From positions 364 to 64,363 of the forward strand of contig DASTYT010000130.1 of the NCBI GenBank assembly GCA_035764725.1: DNA of 64,000 bases, in the 5' to 3' direction. This DNA comes from Candidatus Methylomirabilota bacterium. GTDB taxonomy: Bacteria > Methylomirabilota > Methylomirabilia > Rokubacteriales > CSP1-6. The notes under the pieces are model-generated. The model was not told the DNA's origin. It saw only the letters and a list, made by a program, of their open reading frames with translations, and did not search any database. The translations under genes and the position numbers were made by a program. Within the stretch, counting starts at the first letter, position 1; the number at the start of each line of letters is the position of its first letter. Below, piece after piece: positions 1,857 to 13,294 of this stretch.

Positions 1857-2175
1857 CGGTCGGGCTCCTCGGTCCTCATTGGGGATCGACCCCGGGATCG
1901 TGCCAGTTACACTACTCCCGCGGCATCCGGGATAAGTGCACGTTCCGTGCTCAGATTGGCTTTTGTTACTTTTCAACTACTTAAGGCCATGCACCGGCTG
2001 CACGCCCTACGAAAAGTCAAGCTTCCCGACACTTCCGCGTGGCAAATCTTCCCTAACGGCAGCGGGCCGGGGTAGGTCCTCAGGAGGCGCCAGCGAAGCT
2101 CTTCCCTTGCCCTCCCGATATCTGCTATTCCATACTCCTACTGCCCGGGTCAACTCCGCAGGGCTGGAGGACACC

Positions 2176-3168
2176 ATGAACCGCCGCTGCACCATCGCAC
2201 TGCTTGTTGCCCTTGTCCTGATCCTCACCGGGGTTGGCGTCGCGCGCGCGGCCGGCGAGCTCGGTCTGGCGACGGGAGGCGAGCGCGGCACGTACTACCA
2301 GTTCGGGCTCAATCTCCAGAAACTCGTCAAGGACAAGGGGATCGATCTCTCCGTCTACACGTCCAAGGGGTCGATCGAGAACGTCTACGCGGTCTACCAG
2401 AAGCCGAACACCCAGATGGGGATCGTGCAATCCGACGTCCTGGCCTTCGTGGCCCGCGTGCAGTCCGACCCAGTGCTCAAGCGGATCGCGAAGAAGACCA
2501 AGATGGTCTTCCCCCTCTACAACGAAGAAATCCACCTGCTCGGCCGGAAGGGGATCACGGACTTCGACGACCTGACGGACCGCCGGGTCGCTATCGGCCG
2601 CGAGGGTAGTGGCACCTATCTTACCGCGCGGCTGCTCTTCAAGGTGTCCGAGGTGCAGCCCAAGGAGATGGTGCTGATCGACACGGACGAGGCGCTCACC
2701 GCGCTCAAGGAAGGGCGCGTCGACGCGATGTTCTACGTGGCGGGCTACCCCGTGAAGCTGTTCAGCGAGGGCGTCAGCCAGGCCGACAACCTCGCGCTGG
2801 TCCCCATCACGAACAAGAGCATCACCGAGTTCTATCCGCGGTCCGAGATACCCGCCGGCACCTATCCCTGGCAGCCGCAGGCGCTCTCGACGGTCGCGGT
2901 CAAGGCGGTGCTCATCTCCTTCGACTTCCGCCGCCGCGACTGTGATCTGGTGGGGCAGTTCGCCCAGACGGTGTCCGCCAACCTGCCGTGGCTCGTGAAG
3001 AACGGCCATCCGAAGTGGAAGTCGGTGGATCTCGACGCGCCGCTGCGCGGCTGGGAGCAGTACGACTGCGTCGCGAAGTACCTCCGCAAGCCCGGGCAGC
3101 CCGCCGCCGCGAAGGCGACCGGCGGGAATCCGGTCATGGACGCCATCAAGGAGATGCTCAACGAGTGA
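2176..3168 (+). CDS. TAXI-family TRAP transporter solute-binding protein (orphan; no TRAP permease adjacent)
   Basis: ATG at 2176 follows GGAGG. Signal peptide MNRRCTIALLVALVLILTGVGVARA. Mature part GGERGTYYQFG..SKGSIENV..GIVQSDV.. is typical of TAXI/NMT1-like receptors. The ORF-track start at 1936 is rejected as a 5' extension. Confidence 0.8.
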   Translation: MNRRCTIALLVALVLILTGVGVARAAGELGLATGGERGTYYQFGLNLQKLVKDKGIDLSVYTSKGSIENVYAVYQKPNTQMGIVQSDVLAFVARVQSDPVLKRIAKKTKMVFPLYNEEIHLLGRKGITDFDDLTDRRVAIGREGSGTYLTARLLFKVSEVQPKEMVLIDTDEALTALKEGRVDAMFYVAGYPVKLFSEGVSQADNLALVPITNKSITEFYPRSEIPAGTYPWQPQALSTVAVKAVLISFDFRRRDCDLVGQFAQTVSANLPWLVKNGHPKWKSVDLDAPLRGWEQYDCVAKYLRKPGQPAAAKATGGNPVMDAIKEMLNE

Positions 3169-6391: not shown

Positions 6392-7680
6392 TGAACGGAG
6401 TGACGCTGCCGACCGAGACCGTGTTCGTGATGGAGATGTCGCCGATCAAGTTCGGCCTGGGGGCGATGGACGAGATCGGTTTCGATGCCGCGCGCCTCGG
6501 ACTCAGGAAGGCACTGGTCTTCACCGACCGCAACCTGGCCGCCGCGGGGCTCCCCGACCGCGTGCGCGCGCTCCTCGAGGAGCAGGGCATCAAAGCCGAC
6601 GTCTACGACGGCGTCGAGGTGGAGCCGAGCGACCGGTCCATGGAGGACGCGGCGGAGTACGCGCGGACCAAGGAGTTCGACGGCCTCGTGGCGGTGGGCG
6701 GCGGTAGCACCATCGATACGTGCAAGGCCGCCAACCTCCTCACCTGCTACCCCGCGCCGCTGCTCGACTACATCAACAAGCCGGTCGGCAAGGGCGTGGC
6801 GGTGCCCGGCCCGCTCAAGCCGCTCATCGCGGTGCCGACCACCGCGGGCACGGGCAGCGAGACCACGGCGGTCGCGGTCACTCACGTCATCGACCAGAAC
6901 GTGAAGGCGGGGGTGTCGCACCGGCTGCTCCGGCCCGCGCTGGGCGTGGTCGACCCCCTCAACACCGTGACCGCGCCCCCGGAGGTCACCGCGGCGGCGG
7001 GCGCGGACATCCTCACCCACGCCATCGAGTCCTACACGACGCGCCCGTACAACGCGCGCGCCAAGCATCATCCGCCCGACCGGCCCGCCTACATCGGCGC
7101 CAACCCGGCCAGCGACGTCTGGTGCGAGAAGGCGATCGATTACGTCGCCCGCTACCTGCGGCGCGCCGTGCTGAACGGGCTCGACCTGGAGGCGCGCGTC
7201 AACCTGGCGCTCGCCGCCAACTACGCGGGAATCGGCTTCGGGAACGCGGGCGTCCACATCCCGCACGCCCTCGCCTACCCGATCGCCGGGCTCGTGCGCG
7301 ACTACGTGCCACCGGGCTATCGCACGCGTCACGCGATGGTGCCGCACGGTATGGCGGTGATCCTCACCGCGCCGTCCGCCTTCCGCTTCACGTACACGAG
7401 CGCGACGGAGCGCCATCTCCGCGCCGCCGAGCTGATGGGCGTGCCCGTGAGCGGGCTCTCCGAGGCCGAGCGGCGGGAGGCGCTGCCCCGGGCCCTGATC
7501 TCGCTCATGCGCGACACCGGCATCCCGAACGGGCTGAACGCGGTGGGCTACACCGAGCGCGACATCCCCGCGCTGGTGGAGGGCACGCTGAAGCAGCCGC
7601 GCCTGCTCGCGGGCGCGCCGCGCTCGGTAGGCTCGGCCGATCTGGAATGGATCCTGCGGGACTCGATGCGGCTCTGGTAG
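6391..7680 (+). CDS. iron-containing alcohol dehydrogenase, hydroxyacid-oxoacid transhydrogenase (ADHFE1)-like
   Basis: [33 protein letters not shown] and [11 protein letters not shown] motifs of group III Fe-ADHs. The long insertion around [19 protein letters not shown] is as in the HOT subfamily. Confidence 0.8.
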
Positions 7681-7727
7681 GGGAGAACGACCCCGGGCCG
7701 GCGCTGAGCGCCGACCCGGGACTGGCC

Positions 7728-7910
7728 CTAGCGGCCGAACTGGAGCTCGATCCAGCGCGGCGTCCGCGCCGGCTGGCTCGTCTTCGTGGCGCGCTCGTGC
7801 TCCGGCTCCGCCGTCGCCGCCTCGATCGCCGCGAGCCGCGCGGCCTCCGCGCGCCGCTCGCCCAGCCAGACCTCCACCAGTTTCTCGAGCACGTACGTGT
7901 TCACGTACAT
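7728..7910 (-). CDS. hypothetical small protein (60 aa)
   Basis: ATG at 7910 is preceded by GAGGAGAG. It lies 13 nt downstream of the preceding ORF, so the two are probably co-transcribed. No family recognised. Confidence 0.5.
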   Translation of the reverse strand: MYVNTYVLEKLVEVWLGERRAEAARLAAIEAATAEPEHERATKTSQPARTPRWIELQFGR

Positions 7911-7923
7911 GGTCTCTCCTCGC

Positions 7924-8304
7924 TCAGCGCGCCGCCGCAGTGAGCGGCGTCACGAGCCGCGAACCGCGCGCCGACGTCGGCGCCGGCATGGGCGGCAGCA
8001 GGACGATCTCGAACGGCCGTGGACTCGCGTGCTCCATGGTGCGCTCCACGATCTGCACCAGCGGGCCAATCAGCGCCGGGCGTCCCGGCAACCGCAACCG
8101 CACGCACCAGCCTCCGCCCGGCCGGGCGGCGACCTCGGGCGCGGCCACCGCGCCCAGCTCGCGGTGGACGGCATCGGTCACCTGGATCTGCAGGGCCACG
8201 CGCCGCGCGCGGGCTCCGGCCCTCAGCTCCGCGAGCCACAGCAGCCCCACCACGAACCAGATCGGGCTCGTCGCGATCAACACCATCAACACCGTGGTCA
8301 TCAT
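7924..8304 (-). CDS. hypothetical membrane protein (one N-terminal TM helix, 126 aa)
   Basis: MMTTVLMVLIATSPIWFVVGLLWLAEL.. gives an N-terminal TM segment. The start is preceded by GGAAAGGGGGG. No family recognised. Confidence 0.5.
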   Translation of the reverse strand: MMTTVLMVLIATSPIWFVVGLLWLAELRAGARARRVALQIQVTDAVHRELGAVAAPEVAARPGGGWCVRLRLPGRPALIGPLVQIVERTMEHASPRPFEIVLLPPMPAPTSARGSRLVTPLTAAAR

Positions 8305-8406
8305 GGCGCCCCCCTTTCCTCATTGGTGAGACACCGGGGGCCGCCAGGTGTGAAAGCGACGCGAATACGCGGGGCGGCTGCGGCGGGCGGCGACGGCGAA
8401 GAACGG

Positions 8407-9369
8407 TCAGGCGGGAAGCGGATGCAGATCCGGCCGGCACGACGTGCACGGGGCCAGGCCGGCGCCTTCCGCGCGGGCGCGGGAGGCGTACACGGTGAAG
8501 TTGCTGAGCGACTGCTGGCTGATCGTACCGCAGGTCGGGATGCAGTACTCGGTGTCGTCGAGGTGGCAGTAGTACACCGCGTCCCGATCCACGTGCGGAC
8601 TCCGGCCGCCGCCCTTCAGGTGAATCCCCTCGAGCGAGAGGAGCTGCTGCTTGAGGCCGATCCGGTTTCCGGCATAGCCCACGAGGTCGCCGTCGCTTCC
8701 GACCACGCGATGGCAGGGCACCACGATGGGCAATGGATTGTGTCGCAACGCCTGGGCCACCGCCCGGCTCGCCTGCGGCGCGCCGAGCTCGTGCGCAATG
8801 CGCGCATATGACGCCACCGATCCAAACGGCAGGCGAAGCGTCACCTCGAGCACGCGACGCTGGAACTCGCTGCCGGCGAGGCGGAGATCCAGCGGCCAGT
8901 CGAGCCGCGTCCGCCGTCCCTGGAGATACTCCGTGAGGTCGCGGAACAGCCCCTCCGTGCGGGCGACATCCTCCACCGCCTCCGCGCCTCGCCGCGCGAG
9001 CTTGTTCCCCGCGCCACCGCGGCCCGAGATGTACTCGACCACCGACACGCCCTGCTCGGTGGCGCCGATGAGGATGGGACCCAGCGCCGACTCGAACACG
9101 CCGTAGCGCACGAGACGGGTCCGGAGATCGGCCAGTCGATGCTCCAGCTCCGCGCGCGCCAGTGTCGGCCCGGCTCCGGGCGCCGGCTCGCTGCGCAGCC
9201 CCGTCACCGCGCCCTCGATCTCCTGATAGCGCCCGAGCTCCTGCCGGCACTCCGAGCAGCCGGCGAGATGCGTGTCCACGCGCCGCGCCGCGGCGGGGCT
9301 CGCCTCCTCCATCGCCACCGCGATCAGGTCCGGCTCGACCTCACGGCACGTCAGGGTTTCGCGGCTCAT
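8407..9369 (-). CDS. ZAS-type anti-sigma domain fused to methylated-DNA-protein-cysteine methyltransferase (MGMT) and a C-terminal Ada-type Zn(Cys)4 domain
   Basis: The N-terminus has C8 and H34-x3-C38-x2-C41 (the HxxxCxxC ZAS motif). The middle part is an MGMT domain: ..FQRRVLEVTLRLPFGSVASYARIA..NPLPIVVPCHRVVGSDG with acceptor Cys219 (codon 8713-8715). The C-terminus YCIPTCGTISQQSLSNFTVYASRARAEGAGLAPCTSCRP aligns with E. coli N-Ada FCRPSC...NVSFYAN...AAGFRPCKRCQP, with the same C-x3-C-x26-C-x2-C spacing. There is an ATGA overlap with the sigma gene. Confidence 0.8.
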   Translation of the reverse strand: MSRETLTCREVEPDLIAVAMEEASPAAARRVDTHLAGCSECRQELGRYQEIEGAVTGLRSEPAPGAGPTLARAELEHRLADLRTRLVRYGVFESALGPILIGATEQGVSVVEYISGRGGAGNKLARRGAEAVEDVARTEGLFRDLTEYLQGRRTRLDWPLDLRLAGSEFQRRVLEVTLRLPFGSVASYARIAHELGAPQASRAVAQALRHNPLPIVVPCHRVVGSDGDLVGYAGNRIGLKQQLLSLEGIHLKGGGRSPHVDRDAVYYCHLDDTEYCIPTCGTISQQSLSNFTVYASRARAEGAGLAPCTSCRPDLHPLPA

Positions 9370-9914
9370 GCGCTTGGCTCCCCTCTTCCCACCTGGGCGA
9401 TGGCGAGGTCACCGAGCGCCCGGCGGACCTTGCGCAGCGCCTGGAACACGTGGGCGCGGGCACTCTCCGCGGAGCAATCGAGGCTCTGCCCGATCGCATC
9501 GTAGTCCAGCTCGTGGATCTTTCGCATGGTGAACGCCAGGCGCTGCTTCAATGGCAGCGCGATGACGATGGCGTCGATCTTCTTGCTTGCCTGCTCCAGC
9601 ACCGCTTCTCCTTCCGGCCCCCCGCCGTCGCGCCGCTCGTCCCGCTGCCCGATGGCCTCGTGAGCCCGTCGGCGGCGCGCCTCCGACCTCCAGTGATTCC
9701 GGCAGAGATTGGTGGCGATGGCGAACAACCACGCGCGGACGTTCGCGTCCGGCGCGAGCCTTCCGTGCGCCCGATACGCGCGGAGGAACGTCTCCTGCGA
9801 GAGATCGTCCGCATCGCTCGGACGGCGGGTCACCCGCGCGAGGTACCGGTGTATCTCTCCGTGGTGGGCGGCCACCACGGCCTCGAACGCCTGATCTGCC
9901 ATCACTCTACTCAT
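9366..9914 (-). CDS. ECF-type RNA polymerase sigma-70 family factor
   Basis: Region 2 (DADDLSQETFLRAYRAHGRL..RAWLFAIATNLCRNHWR) and region 4 (LPLKQRLAFTMRKIHELDYDAIGQSLDCSAESARAHVFQALRKVR) are present. An alternative ATG lies 4 codons in. Confidence 0.9.
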   Translation of the reverse strand: MSRVMADQAFEAVVAAHHGEIHRYLARVTRRPSDADDLSQETFLRAYRAHGRLAPDANVRAWLFAIATNLCRNHWRSEARRRRAHEAIGQRDERRDGGGPEGEAVLEQASKKIDAIVIALPLKQRLAFTMRKIHELDYDAIGQSLDCSAESARAHVFQALRKVRRALGDLAIAQVGRGEPSA

Positions 9915-9999
9915 GAGACCCCACGGGACCCGCGGCGTGAAATGGGCCTGCCGGGCCGTGAGCCATCGCCGTCAGATCAGCTGGTTATGTCCCGGTGGC

Positions 10000-11376
10000 T
10001 CAGAGCTGACCGGAGTCGCCCCAGGACGGCAGGAGGGCGCGGTAGGCGGGGTCCTGGTAGCGGTCCAGGTGAAACGCCTTCGCGTACGGGGGGAGCGGGC
10101 GGCCCACGATGTAGTCCGCGAGGAGGTCAGCGGCGCCGTTCGAGGCCATGAGACCGTAGCCCGAGAGGCCGCCGAGCACGTAGGCGCCGTCGAGCGCCAG
10201 GGGGCAGGCGAGGAAGCGGTTCTCCTCGGTCTTGGTGTAGTACCCACCGTCCACGAAGGTCCGGGGCAATCGGTCGGCGTAGCCCGCCATGGCCGGCAGC
10301 ATGCGGGACAGGCCCCGGATCACGATCTCGGCGTAGGCCGGATCGAACTCGATGGGGAACTGCGGCTCGAGCGGCTCGATGTCGTACGTCCAGATGCCCA
10401 GCACGATGGGGCTGTCCGCCGGCCCCTCGGGCCGGCCATGCACGCCCGGGGGCAGCTCCTCGAGCAGCCGGCGGATGTCCGGCGCTTCCCCGAGCACTTC
10501 GCGCTCCTCGGCCGACCAGGGCAGGCGCACCGGATCCGTCCAGATCAGCATCGGCGCGTGTCGCGGCACCGCGCCCAGCGAGTCGGTGAACGCGACCTTG
10601 GCGTGCCGCTCGCAGAACACCGGCAGCTCCACGCCCACGAGGCGTCCGACCTCCCTCAGGAACGGCCCCGCGGCGACGACGAAGCGCGGCGTGGCGATGC
10701 CGACGGACCCGCCCGCGCTCGCGAGGCGCACCCCGCGCACCCGGCCCCCCGCCGTTTCCACCGACTCGACGCGCCCCTCGATCAGCCGGGCCCCCTTCTC
10801 CCGCGCGCGCTCCAGCAGGTACATGCCGAGCTGCTGTCCGCTGAACCAGCCGCAGCGGCGCGCGTGCAGCAGCGCCACCGTGTCCTCGGCGAGATACGGG
10901 AAGTGGCGCCGGATCGTGCCGGCGTCGGTGACGACGTCGGCGCCCACGGGCTCGCCCTCGAAGCCCTCCGCCGGAGCCGGCCGGTACTCCGCGCCCGGCG
11001 TGGCGTGCAGGCGCGCCACCCCCGCCCCGCGTCCGGCCGCCTCGCGGGCGGCGCGGACGAAGTCGGGCACGCGCGCGGGATCGGCGGTCGCGAAGAGATA
11101 GCCGCGCCGGTTCATGCGGAACACGTTGCCGCTCTCGCGCGCCAGCTCCTCGAGGAGATCGATGCTCCGGTTCATCAGCGCGACCATGTCGTCGCCGGGG
11201 CCGGGCCACCAGTTCCGGTAGGATTCGGTGGACTTATCGCTGGTGAGTGAGAGCGGGGGACGCTCGTCCACGATCACGACATTGGCCATCCCGCGGCGAA
11301 CCGCCAGGTGATAGGCGGCCGCGATGCCCGCGATGCCGGCCCCGCAGATGACGACCTCGGCCGTGGATACGCCCAT
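10000..11376 (-). CDS. FAD-dependent oxidoreductase (DAO family)
   Basis: N-terminal dinucleotide fold VVICGAGIAGIAAAYHLA. 458 aa with DAO-like C-terminal motifs (GLSGYGLM). Confidence 0.8.
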   Translation of the reverse strand: MGVSTAEVVICGAGIAGIAAAYHLAVRRGMANVVIVDERPPLSLTSDKSTESYRNWWPGPGDDMVALMNRSIDLLEELARESGNVFRMNRRGYLFATADPARVPDFVRAAREAAGRGAGVARLHATPGAEYRPAPAEGFEGEPVGADVVTDAGTIRRHFPYLAEDTVALLHARRCGWFSGQQLGMYLLERAREKGARLIEGRVESVETAGGRVRGVRLASAGGSVGIATPRFVVAAGPFLREVGRLVGVELPVFCERHAKVAFTDSLGAVPRHAPMLIWTDPVRLPWSAEEREVLGEAPDIRRLLEELPPGVHGRPEGPADSPIVLGIWTYDIEPLEPQFPIEFDPAYAEIVIRGLSRMLPAMAGYADRLPRTFVDGGYYTKTEENRFLACPLALDGAYVLGGLSGYGLMASNGAADLLADYIVGRPLPPYAKAFHLDRYQDPAYRALLPSWGDSGQL

Positions 11377-11448: not shown

Positions 11449-12327
11449 ATGCGCTGGCGAGACATGCGGGGCAGCGGCAACATCGAGGACCGCGAGGGCC
11501 AGGGGCCGGCGCGCGGCGGTCTGGGCGGCGGCATGAAGCTCGGCGGCGCGGGCCTTCTCGCGGTGGTCGTCGTGAGCTTCCTGCTCGGGCTCAATCCGCT
11601 CGACGTCCTCACCGGGCTCCAGGGCGGCGGGCCGCCCCCGATGGACAGTCCCGCGCCGGGCCCGGCTCCGGGCGGCGCCCCGACGGGCGCGCCCGACCCG
11701 ACCAAGGAGTTCGTGGCGCGCGTGCTGGGCGACACCGAGGACACCTGGCGCGCCATCTTCCAGAAGCAAGGCCGCGAGTACGAGGCGCCGCGCCTCGTCC
11801 TTTTCCGCGGCGCCGTCGAGTCCGCGTGCGGCCACGCCAGCGCCGCGGTCGGCCCCTTCTACTGCTCGGGCGATCAACGTGTTTATCTCGACCGCGCGTT
11901 CTTCGAGGAGCTGTCGCAGCGCTTCGGCGCGCCGGGCGAGTTCGCGCGCGCCTACGTGATCGCCCACGAGATCGGGCATCACGTCCAGAACCTCATCGGC
12001 GTCACCGAGAAGGTGGCGTCCCAGCGCGCGCGGGGGGGCCGCGGGAACGCGCTCTCGGTGGCGATGGAGCTCCAGGCCGACTGCCTTGCCGGGGTGTGGG
12101 GGCACTACGCCAAGCGGCGAAACCTGCTGGACCCGGGCGACGTGGAGGCCGGGCTCCAGGCGGCCGCCGCCATCGGCGACGACCGCATCCAGCAGCAGTC
12201 ACGCGGCTACGTGTCCCCCGAGTCCTTCACCCACGGCAGCTCCGAGCAGCGGGTGCGCTGGTTTCGCACGGGGCTGGACTCGGGCGAGGTGCGCCAGTGC
12301 GACACCTTCGCGGCAGCCCGGCGCTGA
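11449..12327 (+). CDS. YpfJ-type neutral zinc metallopeptidase, membrane anchored
   Basis: ATG at 11449 follows GAGGGAGG. MRWRDMRGSGNIEDRR-like N-terminus, one TM segment, and HEIGHHVQN (HExxH). FYCSGDQRVYLD and ELQADCLAGVW are typical of the family. Confidence 0.85.
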   Translation: MRWRDMRGSGNIEDREGQGPARGGLGGGMKLGGAGLLAVVVVSFLLGLNPLDVLTGLQGGGPPPMDSPAPGPAPGGAPTGAPDPTKEFVARVLGDTEDTWRAIFQKQGREYEAPRLVLFRGAVESACGHASAAVGPFYCSGDQRVYLDRAFFEELSQRFGAPGEFARAYVIAHEIGHHVQNLIGVTEKVASQRARGGRGNALSVAMELQADCLAGVWGHYAKRRNLLDPGDVEAGLQAAAAIGDDRIQQQSRGYVSPESFTHGSSEQRVRWFRTGLDSGEVRQCDTFAAARR

Positions 12328-12367
12328 TGGGCGGGCGCTGGAGTATGATCCCGCCAGGGAGGAACCC

Positions 12368-13294
12368 ATGGCGATCTCCGCCGCGCCCCTGACCATCACG
12401 CCCCTGCATCCCTGCCTCGGCGCTCGCGTCGAGGGGGTAGATCTCTCGCGGCCCCTCCCCTCGGAGACGTTCCGGCGTGTCGCCGACGCCTTCGACGAGC
12501 ACTCGGTGCTGGTCTTCCACGACCAGCGGCTCACGGACGCGCAGCAGAAGGCCTTCAGCGAGCAGTGGGGACCGCTCGAGACGACGCTGGTGTCTCCGGG
12601 CAAGGAAGGCCGGCTGGATCCCAAGCTCGTGGATCTTTCCAACGTCGACCCGGACCACGGCAGCGCGCTCATGGACTGGAGCGACCGGCGGATGATGTAT
12701 CAGTCCGGCAATCAGCTCTGGCACACGGACAGCTCCTTCAAGCCAATCCCCGCGCATTCGTCCGCATTGTCCGGCCGGGAGATTCCGCCGGTGGGCGGCG
12801 AGACCGAGTTCGCGAGCATGCGTGTCGCCTACACCGCGCTCTCCCCGGTGGAGCAGGCGCGGCTCGAGGGCAAGGTGGTCGTGCATAGCATCATCTACTC
12901 GCGGAGCCTCATCGCGAAGGACCTGTTCGACCCCGAGCAGGCCCGGGCGCTGCCCGCGGTGCGCCATGCTCTGGTGCGCGCCAATCCCGCCCACGGCCGC
13001 AAGGCCTTCTACATCGGCTCGCACGCCTGGTTCATCGAGGGCATGCCGTACGCGGAGAGCCGGCGGCTCCTGGACGATCTCCTCGCGCTGACCACGGCGC
13101 CCGAGCGTGTCTATCGGCACGTGTGGCGGCAGTGGGACCTCGTCATGTGGGACAACCGCTGCGTGCTCCATCGCGGTCGCCCCTGGGACTCGGCGCGCTA
13201 CCCGCGGATCATGCGCCGCACGACCGTGGCCGGCGATGGTCCCACCGCCGACCCGCCGCTCGCCGATCCCGCGAGCCTGCCCGCCCTCGACTAG
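12368..13294 (+). CDS. TauD/TfdA-family Fe(II)/2-oxoglutarate dioxygenase
   Basis: ATG at 12368 follows GGGAGG. LWHTDSSF (HxD), ..GGETEFAS.., ..WDNRCVLHRGRPW.. motifs. Confidence 0.85.
   Translation: MAISAAPLTITPLHPCLGARVEGVDLSRPLPSETFRRVADAFDEHSVLVFHDQRLTDAQQKAFSEQWGPLETTLVSPGKEGRLDPKLVDLSNVDPDHGSALMDWSDRRMMYQSGNQLWHTDSSFKPIPAHSSALSGREIPPVGGETEFASMRVAYTALSPVEQARLEGKVVVHSIIYSRSLIAKDLFDPEQARALPAVRHALVRANPAHGRKAFYIGSHAWFIEGMPYAESRRLLDDLLALTTAPERVYRHVWRQWDLVMWDNRCVLHRGRPWDSARYPRIMRRTTVAGDGPTADPPLADPASLPALD

Follow-up and report, generated by a model that had tools for sequence, protein, structure and literature searches.

What would it mean for a sigma factor to be partnered by a suicide DNA-repair protein? 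Among alternative sigma factors, those of the extracytoplasmic function (ECF) type make up the largest family, within which many groups have no known input. The question is raised by two overlapping genes in a 64,000-nucleotide stretch of contig DASTYT010000130.1 from a Candidatus Methylomirabilota bacterium of the Rokubacteriales (hereafter the window, meaning the whole stretch that was analyzed). The first encodes an ECF sigma factor of 182 amino acids (aa); the second encodes a 320-aa protein in which a predicted zinc anti-sigma (ZAS) domain is fused to an O6-methylguanine-DNA methyltransferase (MGMT) and to a module resembling the N-terminal zinc domain of E. coli Ada (N-Ada). An earlier note, made from the sequence alone, had proposed that alkyl transfer onto this fusion could release the sigma factor. 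The answer that we develop is an autoregulated pair of ECF sigma factor and cytoplasmic anti-sigma factor, in which the anti-sigma factor would itself be a suicide DNA-alkylation repair protein and irreversible alkyl transfer would free the sigma factor; we judge the case for this to be evenly balanced.

Both genes lie on the minus strand: the 182-aa open reading frame (9366–9914) is followed by the 320-aa open reading frame (8407–9369), and the stop of the sigma gene shares with the start of its partner a 4-nt ATGA overlap that reads GCATGAGC. A ribosome-binding site, GGGGAG, stands a few bases 5′ of the fusion start, and the two genes are predicted to be translationally coupled. The same adjacency of sigma gene and partner is seen in every related locus of Rokubacteria and Binatia.

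The reactive residues of the fusion fall into three groups: C8, H34, C38 and C41 at the N-terminus; C219, within a PCHR motif, in the core; and C276-x3-C280-x27-C308-x2-C311 towards the C-terminus. A further cysteine, C268, is unconserved. Four Pfam domains are recognized, each exceeding its gathering score. A homologue search gave at least 120 clusters, all of 318–333 aa except for one 234-aa partial sequence, with 56–93% identity to the window protein. Among 120 relatives there is no exception to C8, H34, C38, C41, C219, H220, R221, C276, C280 or C308, and a single one lacks C311 (119 of 120 keep it); three separate reactive-thiol centers are conserved. The protein is soluble and cytoplasmic. 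An AlphaFold2 model built from the 120-sequence alignment reached a mean predicted local distance difference test (pLDDT) score of 86.4 and a predicted template-modelling score (pTM) of 0.71. The anatomy set out in the earlier note is borne out by Pfam matches above cut-off and by profile searches of the PDB: an ECF sigma gene overlapping, through ATGA, a three-part 320-aa protein that consists of a ZAS-type domain, an MGMT domain and an N-Ada-like Zn(Cys)4 module, with the Pfam coordinates placing the zinc module C-terminal to MGMT, the reverse of the order in Ada. Its list of residues was right for C8, H34, C38, C41, C219 and C276-x3-C280; the last two cysteines, given there as C307 and C310 after a spacing of x26, are in fact C308 and C311 after x27.

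At the N-terminus, zf-HC2 matches residues 8–42 (28.1 bits, cut-off 22.2), and a PDB search with a profile of residues 1–85 puts the anti-sigma factor DdvA first (E = 0.008), ahead of ChrR, RslA and RsiW. In the AlphaFold2 model, helices at residues 8–19, 25–35, 39–60 and 68–85 reproduce the class I anti-sigma topology, and MucA (cytoplasmic part) and ChrR appear as weak further Foldseek matches. H34-x3-C38-x2-C41, together with C8, supplies the HxxxCxxC signature of ZAS domains. By each sequence criterion tried, the N-terminus is an anti-sigma domain of the ZAS type, for which binding to the sigma factor is predicted. Of structural interest is the end of this domain: helix 4 (68–85) passes without a break into strand 1 of the N-domain of MGMT.

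The core bears the marks of a working alkyltransferase. Methyltransf_1N matches residues 87–162 (28.6 bits, cut-off 21) and DNA_binding_1, the catalytic domain of MGMT, matches residues 168–249 (101.4 bits, cut-off 27), the active site being P218-C219-H220-R221. A profile search of the PDB finds OGT of Mycobacterium tuberculosis with E = 7.5e-32, and the modeled core superposes on Ada's C-terminal domain (1sfe) and on the same OGT with Foldseek template-modelling scores of 0.83–0.84. The catalytic and DNA-binding set of MGMT (Y188, R202, N211, C219, H220, R221, Y232 and E247) is invariant, and the core is predicted to be catalytically intact.

For the C-terminal segment the earlier note had named a failure to match the Ada zinc domain as grounds for abandoning its proposal; the match was found. 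Ada_Zn_binding covers residues 264–314 (26.2 bits, cut-off 23), and when the last 65 residues were compared as a profile with all PDB sequences N-Ada alone was significant (1adn, 1eyf, 1u8b and 1zgw; E = 1.9e-4), the next match having E > 2. The four cysteines are in register with those of N-Ada, and C276 thus corresponds to the Ada methyl acceptor C38; relative to Ada, the x27 spacing has one residue more. The module is confidently modeled (pLDDT 91–95). It spans positions 16–65 of the 65 in the profile and so falls short of a complete domain by the first ~15. A chance cysteine-rich tail was considered and rejected, given that the four cysteines are invariant and the profile is specific to N-Ada. 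The protein is likewise no Ada orthologue: it scores 95.9 bits against the 345 required by NF011964, through its MGMT part alone, has no AraC or helix-turn-helix Pfam match and has its domains in reversed order.

The sigma factor is conventional. It matches Sigma70_r2 (63 bits) and Sigma70_r4_2 (38 bits) in Pfam and the NCBIfam sigma70-ECF model TIGR02937 (82.5 bits, cut-off 42.9); none of the NCBIfam equivalog models matched it. Its sigma2 and sigma4 regions, its length of 182 aa and its match to the superfamily model are those of ECF group IV, and the closest solved structures are AlgU, RpoE, and SigH and SigE of M. tuberculosis.

A candidate recognition sequence for this sigma factor was found 5′ of its own gene. 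The motif TTTCAC-N15-GKGTCT has exactly two matches in the 64-kb window, P1 and P2, of which P1 carries the form GGGGTCT and P2 the form GGTGTCT; for a similar, looser pattern 0.02 chance occurrences are expected. P1 precedes the sigma gene and P2 a small gene unit downstream of the fusion, so that the starts at 9914 and 8304, whose promoters the earlier note had singled out for reporter fusions, do share one conserved motif. When the search was extended to 259 kb (the window plus 14 related loci, all from Rokubacteria or Binatia, both strands) the exact motif occurred 25 times, in each instance directly 5′ of the sigma gene (15 of 15 loci) or of the small downstream unit (10 loci), and at no further position in the 259 kb. 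An autoregulatory bipartite promoter of the kind expected of an ECF sigma factor is thus indicated by motif conservation in all 15 related loci. The −10 element of P1 leaves just 1 nt before the annotated ATG (9914), because of which translation of the sigma factor probably begins at M5 (9902), from an mRNA with hardly any leader; a shorter sigma start is annotated in several homologous contigs. P2 is followed by a normal leader, a strong ribosome-binding site (GGAAAGGGGGG) and the ATG at 8304. The recognizable regulon would then comprise two transcription units: the sigma gene with its partner, and the genes for a 126-aa and a 60-aa protein.

How might such a circuit operate? In an unstressed cell the N-terminal domain would hold the sigma factor captive. 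O6-alkylguanine would be repaired by the partner at C219, and C276, the equivalent of Ada C38, possibly takes methyl groups from methylphosphotriesters. Every repair event would alkylate the partner irreversibly, with loss of its anti-sigma function. The freed sigma factor would transcribe its own operon, replacing the spent repair protein, together with the downstream membrane-protein unit, until fresh, unalkylated partner rebinds it and the system is reset. The outcome would be an Ada-like adaptive response that runs through sigma/anti-sigma titration in place of an AraC-type activator. Two precedents underlie this scheme: methylation of Ada C38 triggers the adaptive response of E. coli (PMC10779285), and alkylated alkyltransferases from humans, E. 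coli and Sulfolobus are destabilized and degraded, for which loss of the interface between N- and C-domains has been proposed as the common cause (PMC4605297). In the fusion, the corresponding MGMT interface comes immediately after anti-sigma helix 4, and since this helix is continuous with the opening strand of the MGMT N-domain, the sigma factor would be freed by alkylation damage or proteolysis at this point. By analogy with these cases, release through alkyl transfer is plausible.

The same modules would also allow release by competition. The helix-turn-helix of MGMT and the zinc domain of N-Ada both bind DNA, and methylation of C38 increases the affinity of Ada for DNA (PMC10779285); a partner shared between sigma factor and DNA might therefore be drawn away, the sigma factor being displaced sterically once damaged DNA is engaged, whether or not an alkyl group is transferred. 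We consider this very unlikely: lesions should be few relative to copies of the protein, and stoichiometric titration by binding seems weak as a signal.

A survey of 80 genome loci, taken from one-genome-per-species contigs, places the window in a broader context. A related ECF sigma gene lies immediately 5′ of an MGMT gene, mostly overlapping or abutting it, in 32 of the 80, with representatives from Methylomirabilota, Binatia, Chloroflexota, Actinomycetota and Acidobacteriota, among them Anaerolineae, Limnocylindria, Dehalococcoidia, Solirubrobacterales and Acidimicrobiia. Within the surveyed contigs the three-part protein is confined to Methylomirabilota/Rokubacteria (L001–L005) and Binatia (L006, L007). 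The earlier note had asked for the co-occurrence of zf-HC2 and MGMT fusions with ECF genes: it is real, nine of the 32 sigma-linked partners having the ZAS motif, but ZAS is not universal and what stays constant is an N-extended MGMT. The nine comprise the seven from Rokubacteria and Binatia plus one each from Dehalococcoidia (L012) and Acidobacteria (L050), the last two without the Ada module. The Ada-like module is present in eight partners, again the same seven, which alone carry both, plus one from Acidimicrobiia (L055, 4528–5295) in which MGMT is followed by a C-terminal Ada_Zn_binding match (41 bits, profile positions 18–64) and the ZAS motif is missing; this architecture shows that acquisition or retention of the Ada-like tail does not depend on the zinc anti-sigma domain. 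The remaining sigma-linked partners are proteins of 184–260 aa, just MGMT plus an N-extension of 15–70 aa. In four Anaerolineae (L008, L009, L011 and L013) a conserved extension of 40–70 aa runs W-L/M-D ... ALD-x-V/L-Y-A-x-GPG ... helix and contains zero zinc ligands; perhaps the sigma factor is bound here by an element that is reduced or of another kind. A metagenome contig scan with a single protein as query returned one 1.5-kb locus.

Several features set the sigma-linked enzymes apart. Catalytic residues are kept in all 32, the median length of their N-extension is 42 aa, versus an upper bound of 10.5 aa in the 48 unlinked MGMTs, and in a neighbor-joining tree of MGMT cores they cluster, the nearest neighbor of 30 of the 32 being sigma-linked as well. 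Their promoters are also related. In other phyla a −35 element yTCAC(G/A) stands 5′ of most, not all, MGMT-linked sigma genes; for the −10 element, Actinomycetota and Limnocylindria have CGTTC or CGTTT and Anaerolineae have GGTTA, with GGTCT also among the forms. That the promoter type is common to these phyla argues for a single sigma lineage, within which the window sigma factor is 28–36% identical to the actinobacterial MGMT-linked ones. In a census of architectures among the best 150 representatives at 50% identity, ZAS, MGMT and Ada-Zn occur together in 11 clusters, ZAS with MGMT in 29, other N-extended MGMTs in 33 (7 with Ada-Zn) and MGMT with Ada-Zn in 8. Taken together, the 32 sigma-linked loci and the census identify the three-part protein as one elaborate variant of a widespread sigma–MGMT module. 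As far as sequences can tell, the constant element of this module is the N-extended MGMT, neither the ZAS domain nor the Ada module being universal, and the partnership is old and specific.

This variation bears on whether, as RsrA does, the ZAS domain itself senses the stress: the Zn-bound thiols of C8, C38 and C41 would be attacked directly by oxidants or soft electrophiles, zinc would be lost and the sigma factor freed, the repair modules being fused output without a regulatory part. The ZAS ligands show no variation, the RsrA model TIGR03988 is matched weakly (E = 7e-4), and zinc motifs are enriched among soluble class I anti-sigma domains, which are often linked to redox sensing (PMC7406223). 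Against this, the RsrA equivalog threshold of TIGR03988 is missed by a wide distance (19.6 bits versus 62.5), and in most partners, which lack the ZAS motif, pairing, N-extension and promoter type nevertheless persist. In many ZAS domains, moreover, zinc is merely structural. We regard a ZAS sensor as unlikely. The spacing of C8, H34, C38 and C41 (C-x25-H-x3-C-x2-C) is nevertheless the same as that of C11, H37, C41 and C44 in RsrA, and on this ground the zinc domain could be a sensor by itself.

A second alternative dispenses with allosteric coupling altogether: an ordinary sigma factor, anti-sigma factor and ogt operon would have become fused, the repair protein being merely co-expressed and the sigma factor controlled by other means. 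ZAS with MGMT, MGMT with Ada-Zn, all three together and the short extension all exist, and such varied architectures suggest that parts are freely gained and lost; a 2022 review, in its passage on ECF122, a group with MGMT neighbors, also files that group under no cognate anti-sigma factor and unknown mechanism (PMC8999054). Mere co-expression would not predict a sigma-linked MGMT subfamily with an N-extension of its own, however. Nor is there another obvious controller: flanking genes vary among contigs while the four-gene cluster stays, no other conserved regulator adjoins it, and no separate ZAS-type gene was found near the short-form sigma–MGMT pairs. Uncoupled co-expression therefore strikes us as decidedly unlikely.

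If repair and release are coupled as we propose for the window, the scheme might extend to the whole sigma lineage, in at least five phyla: consumption of an MGMT-type alkyltransferase would be the signal throughout, and the ZAS and N-Ada-like parts would reinforce it in Rokubacteria and Binatia. This wider proposal is tentative, and we lean slightly away from it. Besides the RsrA-like ligand spacing, a number of observations weigh against alkyl transfer as the trigger. Binding and release of the sigma factor by its partner are predictions at every step, and the Ada-like module, which lacks the first ~15 profile positions, is a putative methyl acceptor. The N-extension has no ZAS motif in 23 of the 32 sigma-linked partners, extensions of 15–70 aa are too short for a full anti-sigma domain, and that short-form partners bind the sigma factor is an assumption; when the Anaerolineae extensions were compared with the window anti-sigma domain, hhalign aligned the loop and helix 4 alone, with a probability of 7%. 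The regulon is also silent on alkylation: homologue and fold searches revealed no recognizable alkylation link for the 126-aa and 60-aa genes, and no alkA, alkB or aidB was found with the promoter in the 259 kb or near the cluster.

The second unit merits description nonetheless. Homologues of the 126-aa gene lie 3′ of the fusion gene in L001–L003, L005, L081–L083 and L085–L088, and together with the 60-aa gene it is kept in place in all seven of the longer Rokubacteria contigs despite differing flanks. The 126-aa family has 37 clusters, all annotated as hypothetical, the named ones coming from Methylomirabilota. The protein matched nothing in Pfam or NCBIfam, and a fold search with a moderate AlphaFold2 model returned nothing significant (best E = 0.019, a generic alpha/beta fold). 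The 60-aa protein is homologous to genes of 54–75 aa at the same position in related contigs and has no Pfam match. In L081 (7106–7273) and L083 (6254–6436) an extra gene for a hydrophobic peptide of 55–60 aa stands directly after P2, between the fusion gene and the gene for a ~135-aa membrane protein; the corresponding interval of the window, 8305–8406, is too small for it.

Coordinates are collected in Table 1. The window is syntenic with the Rokubacteria-type contigs L086 and L088, the common order being NMT1_3, Pkinase, SGL, YqeY, Fe-ADH, the sigma cluster, DAO, Zn_peptidase and TauD. The TauD protein (12086–13294) was considered as a candidate AlkB and rejected. GC content is ~0.64–0.78, with the lowest value, 0.64, at 2001–3000. 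A tRNA scan and an Rfam scan at gathering score of the whole window gave no match, and a scan of 7500–10200 for sigma-70 promoters and terminators gave nothing useful. About 7 kb past the sigma cluster, L086 (17346–20966) and L088 (17379–20966) contain a cluster of PqqD, ScmC and NTP_transf_5 genes, possibly for peptide maturation; in the matching region of the window, below ~2000, the open reading frames tried had no Pfam match.

Table 1. Features of the sigma–alkyltransferase cluster, in window coordinates.
Feature	Positions	Strand	Basis
ECF (group IV) sigma gene	9366–9914	−	Pfam Sigma70_r2 + Sigma70_r4_2, TIGR02937
Fusion residues 1–85, zinc anti-sigma domain (ZAS), sigma binding predicted	9115–9369	−	zf-HC2, PDB profile, AlphaFold2
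Fusion residues 86–249, complete MGMT/Ogt alkyltransferase	8623–9114	−	Methyltransf_1N, DNA_binding_1, Foldseek
Fusion residues 264–314, N-Ada-like Zn(Cys)4 module	8428–8580	−	Ada_Zn_binding, sub-profile
Promoter P1 (predicted)	9916–9942	−	Motif match 5′ of sigma
Promoter P2 (predicted)	8329–8355	−	Motif match 5′ of ATG at 8304
126-aa single-pass membrane protein gene	7924–8304	−	Homologues at same place in related contigs
60-aa protein gene, end of conserved four-gene cluster	7728–7910	−	Homologues at same place

The earlier note knew of no experimentally characterized example, and in this it stands: a search of the literature for anti-sigma or ECF factors combined with alkyltransferase, methylguanine or Ada/adaptive response found no experimental work. 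The association as such is on record, being listed for ECF122 in the 2022 review; the literature trace that we found amounts to one sentence and one table row of that review (PMC8999054). The link between ECF122 and MGMT is not mentioned in the main text of the 2021 ECF reclassification paper (Casas-Pastor et al.). The pair would accordingly be an ECF/anti-sigma system with a repair enzyme as sensor, in a context broader and slightly less unknown than first thought. If our proposal is correct, a repair enzyme with a second role as anti-sigma factor represents a new input logic, in which damage is sensed through stoichiometric consumption, and offers a mechanism for ECF122-type groups whose mechanism is listed as unknown. 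It would also constitute a second, independent adaptive response to alkylation, in bacteria without the Ada–AraC activator, and show by what route alkylation repair is induced in bacteria outside Proteobacteria and Firmicutes. The best point of access is the three-part protein of Rokubacteria: because its N-terminus is a recognizable anti-sigma domain, the hypothesis is directly testable with a two-gene construct and a 27-bp promoter.

Comparison with known systems indicates both what is shared and what is peculiar to the fusion. Alkyltransferases joined to other modules are familiar (AGT-EndoV, ATL-EndoV, AGT-2 of C. elegans and the AdaA/AdaB split of B. subtilis), but the 2023 family review lists no fusion to a sigma or anti-sigma factor and never uses the word sigma (PMC10779285).

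The nearest relative by neighborhood is ECF122, for which 6-O-methylguanine DNA methyltransferases are conserved neighbors, with an "unknown mechanism" and "without cognate anti-sigma factors", in the passage that the 2022 review devotes to it (PMC8999054, citing the 2021 reclassification). An MGMT gene likewise adjoins the window sigma gene, a likeness that is one of neighborhood and not an assignment by the ECF Hub group model. Actinobacterial pairs of sigma factor and short N-extended MGMT were also found, with a promoter type related to that of the window, although a query with an actinobacterial MGMT-linked sigma factor did not reach the ECF122 example from Cellulomonas sp. Root930, the matches listed all being of the Solirubrobacteraceae type. 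Unlike ECF122 as that passage describes it, the window pair has an MGMT partner that bears a recognizable ZAS domain and an Ada-like module.

With RsrA/SigR, ChrR/SigE, RslA/SigL and DdvA/DdvS the fusion shares solubility, HxxxCxxC with an upstream cysteine, the four-helix class I topology and an anti-sigma gene that adjoins its ECF sigma gene in an operon that is, or for the fusion would be, autoregulated. It differs from RsrA in scoring below the equivalog cut-off, and from these pairs generally in its sensor or effector part, a DNA-repair enzyme where RsrA has the ZAS domain by itself, ChrR a cupin and others a membrane anchor.

The comparison with E. coli Ada is the most instructive. Both proteins have a Zn(Cys)4 module, with C276 of the fusion aligned to C38, and an MGMT domain with PCHR, in which C219 of the fusion equals C321 of Ada; both genes are autoregulated (that of the fusion as judged by its promoter motif), so that spent suicide protein is, or would be, replaced. 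The fusion departs from Ada in having no AraC/HTH_18 domain, with NF011964 far below cut-off, in placing MGMT ahead of the zinc module and in lacking the first ~15 profile positions of that module. Above all, its output would be the release of an ECF sigma factor, as opposed to direct binding of a promoter.

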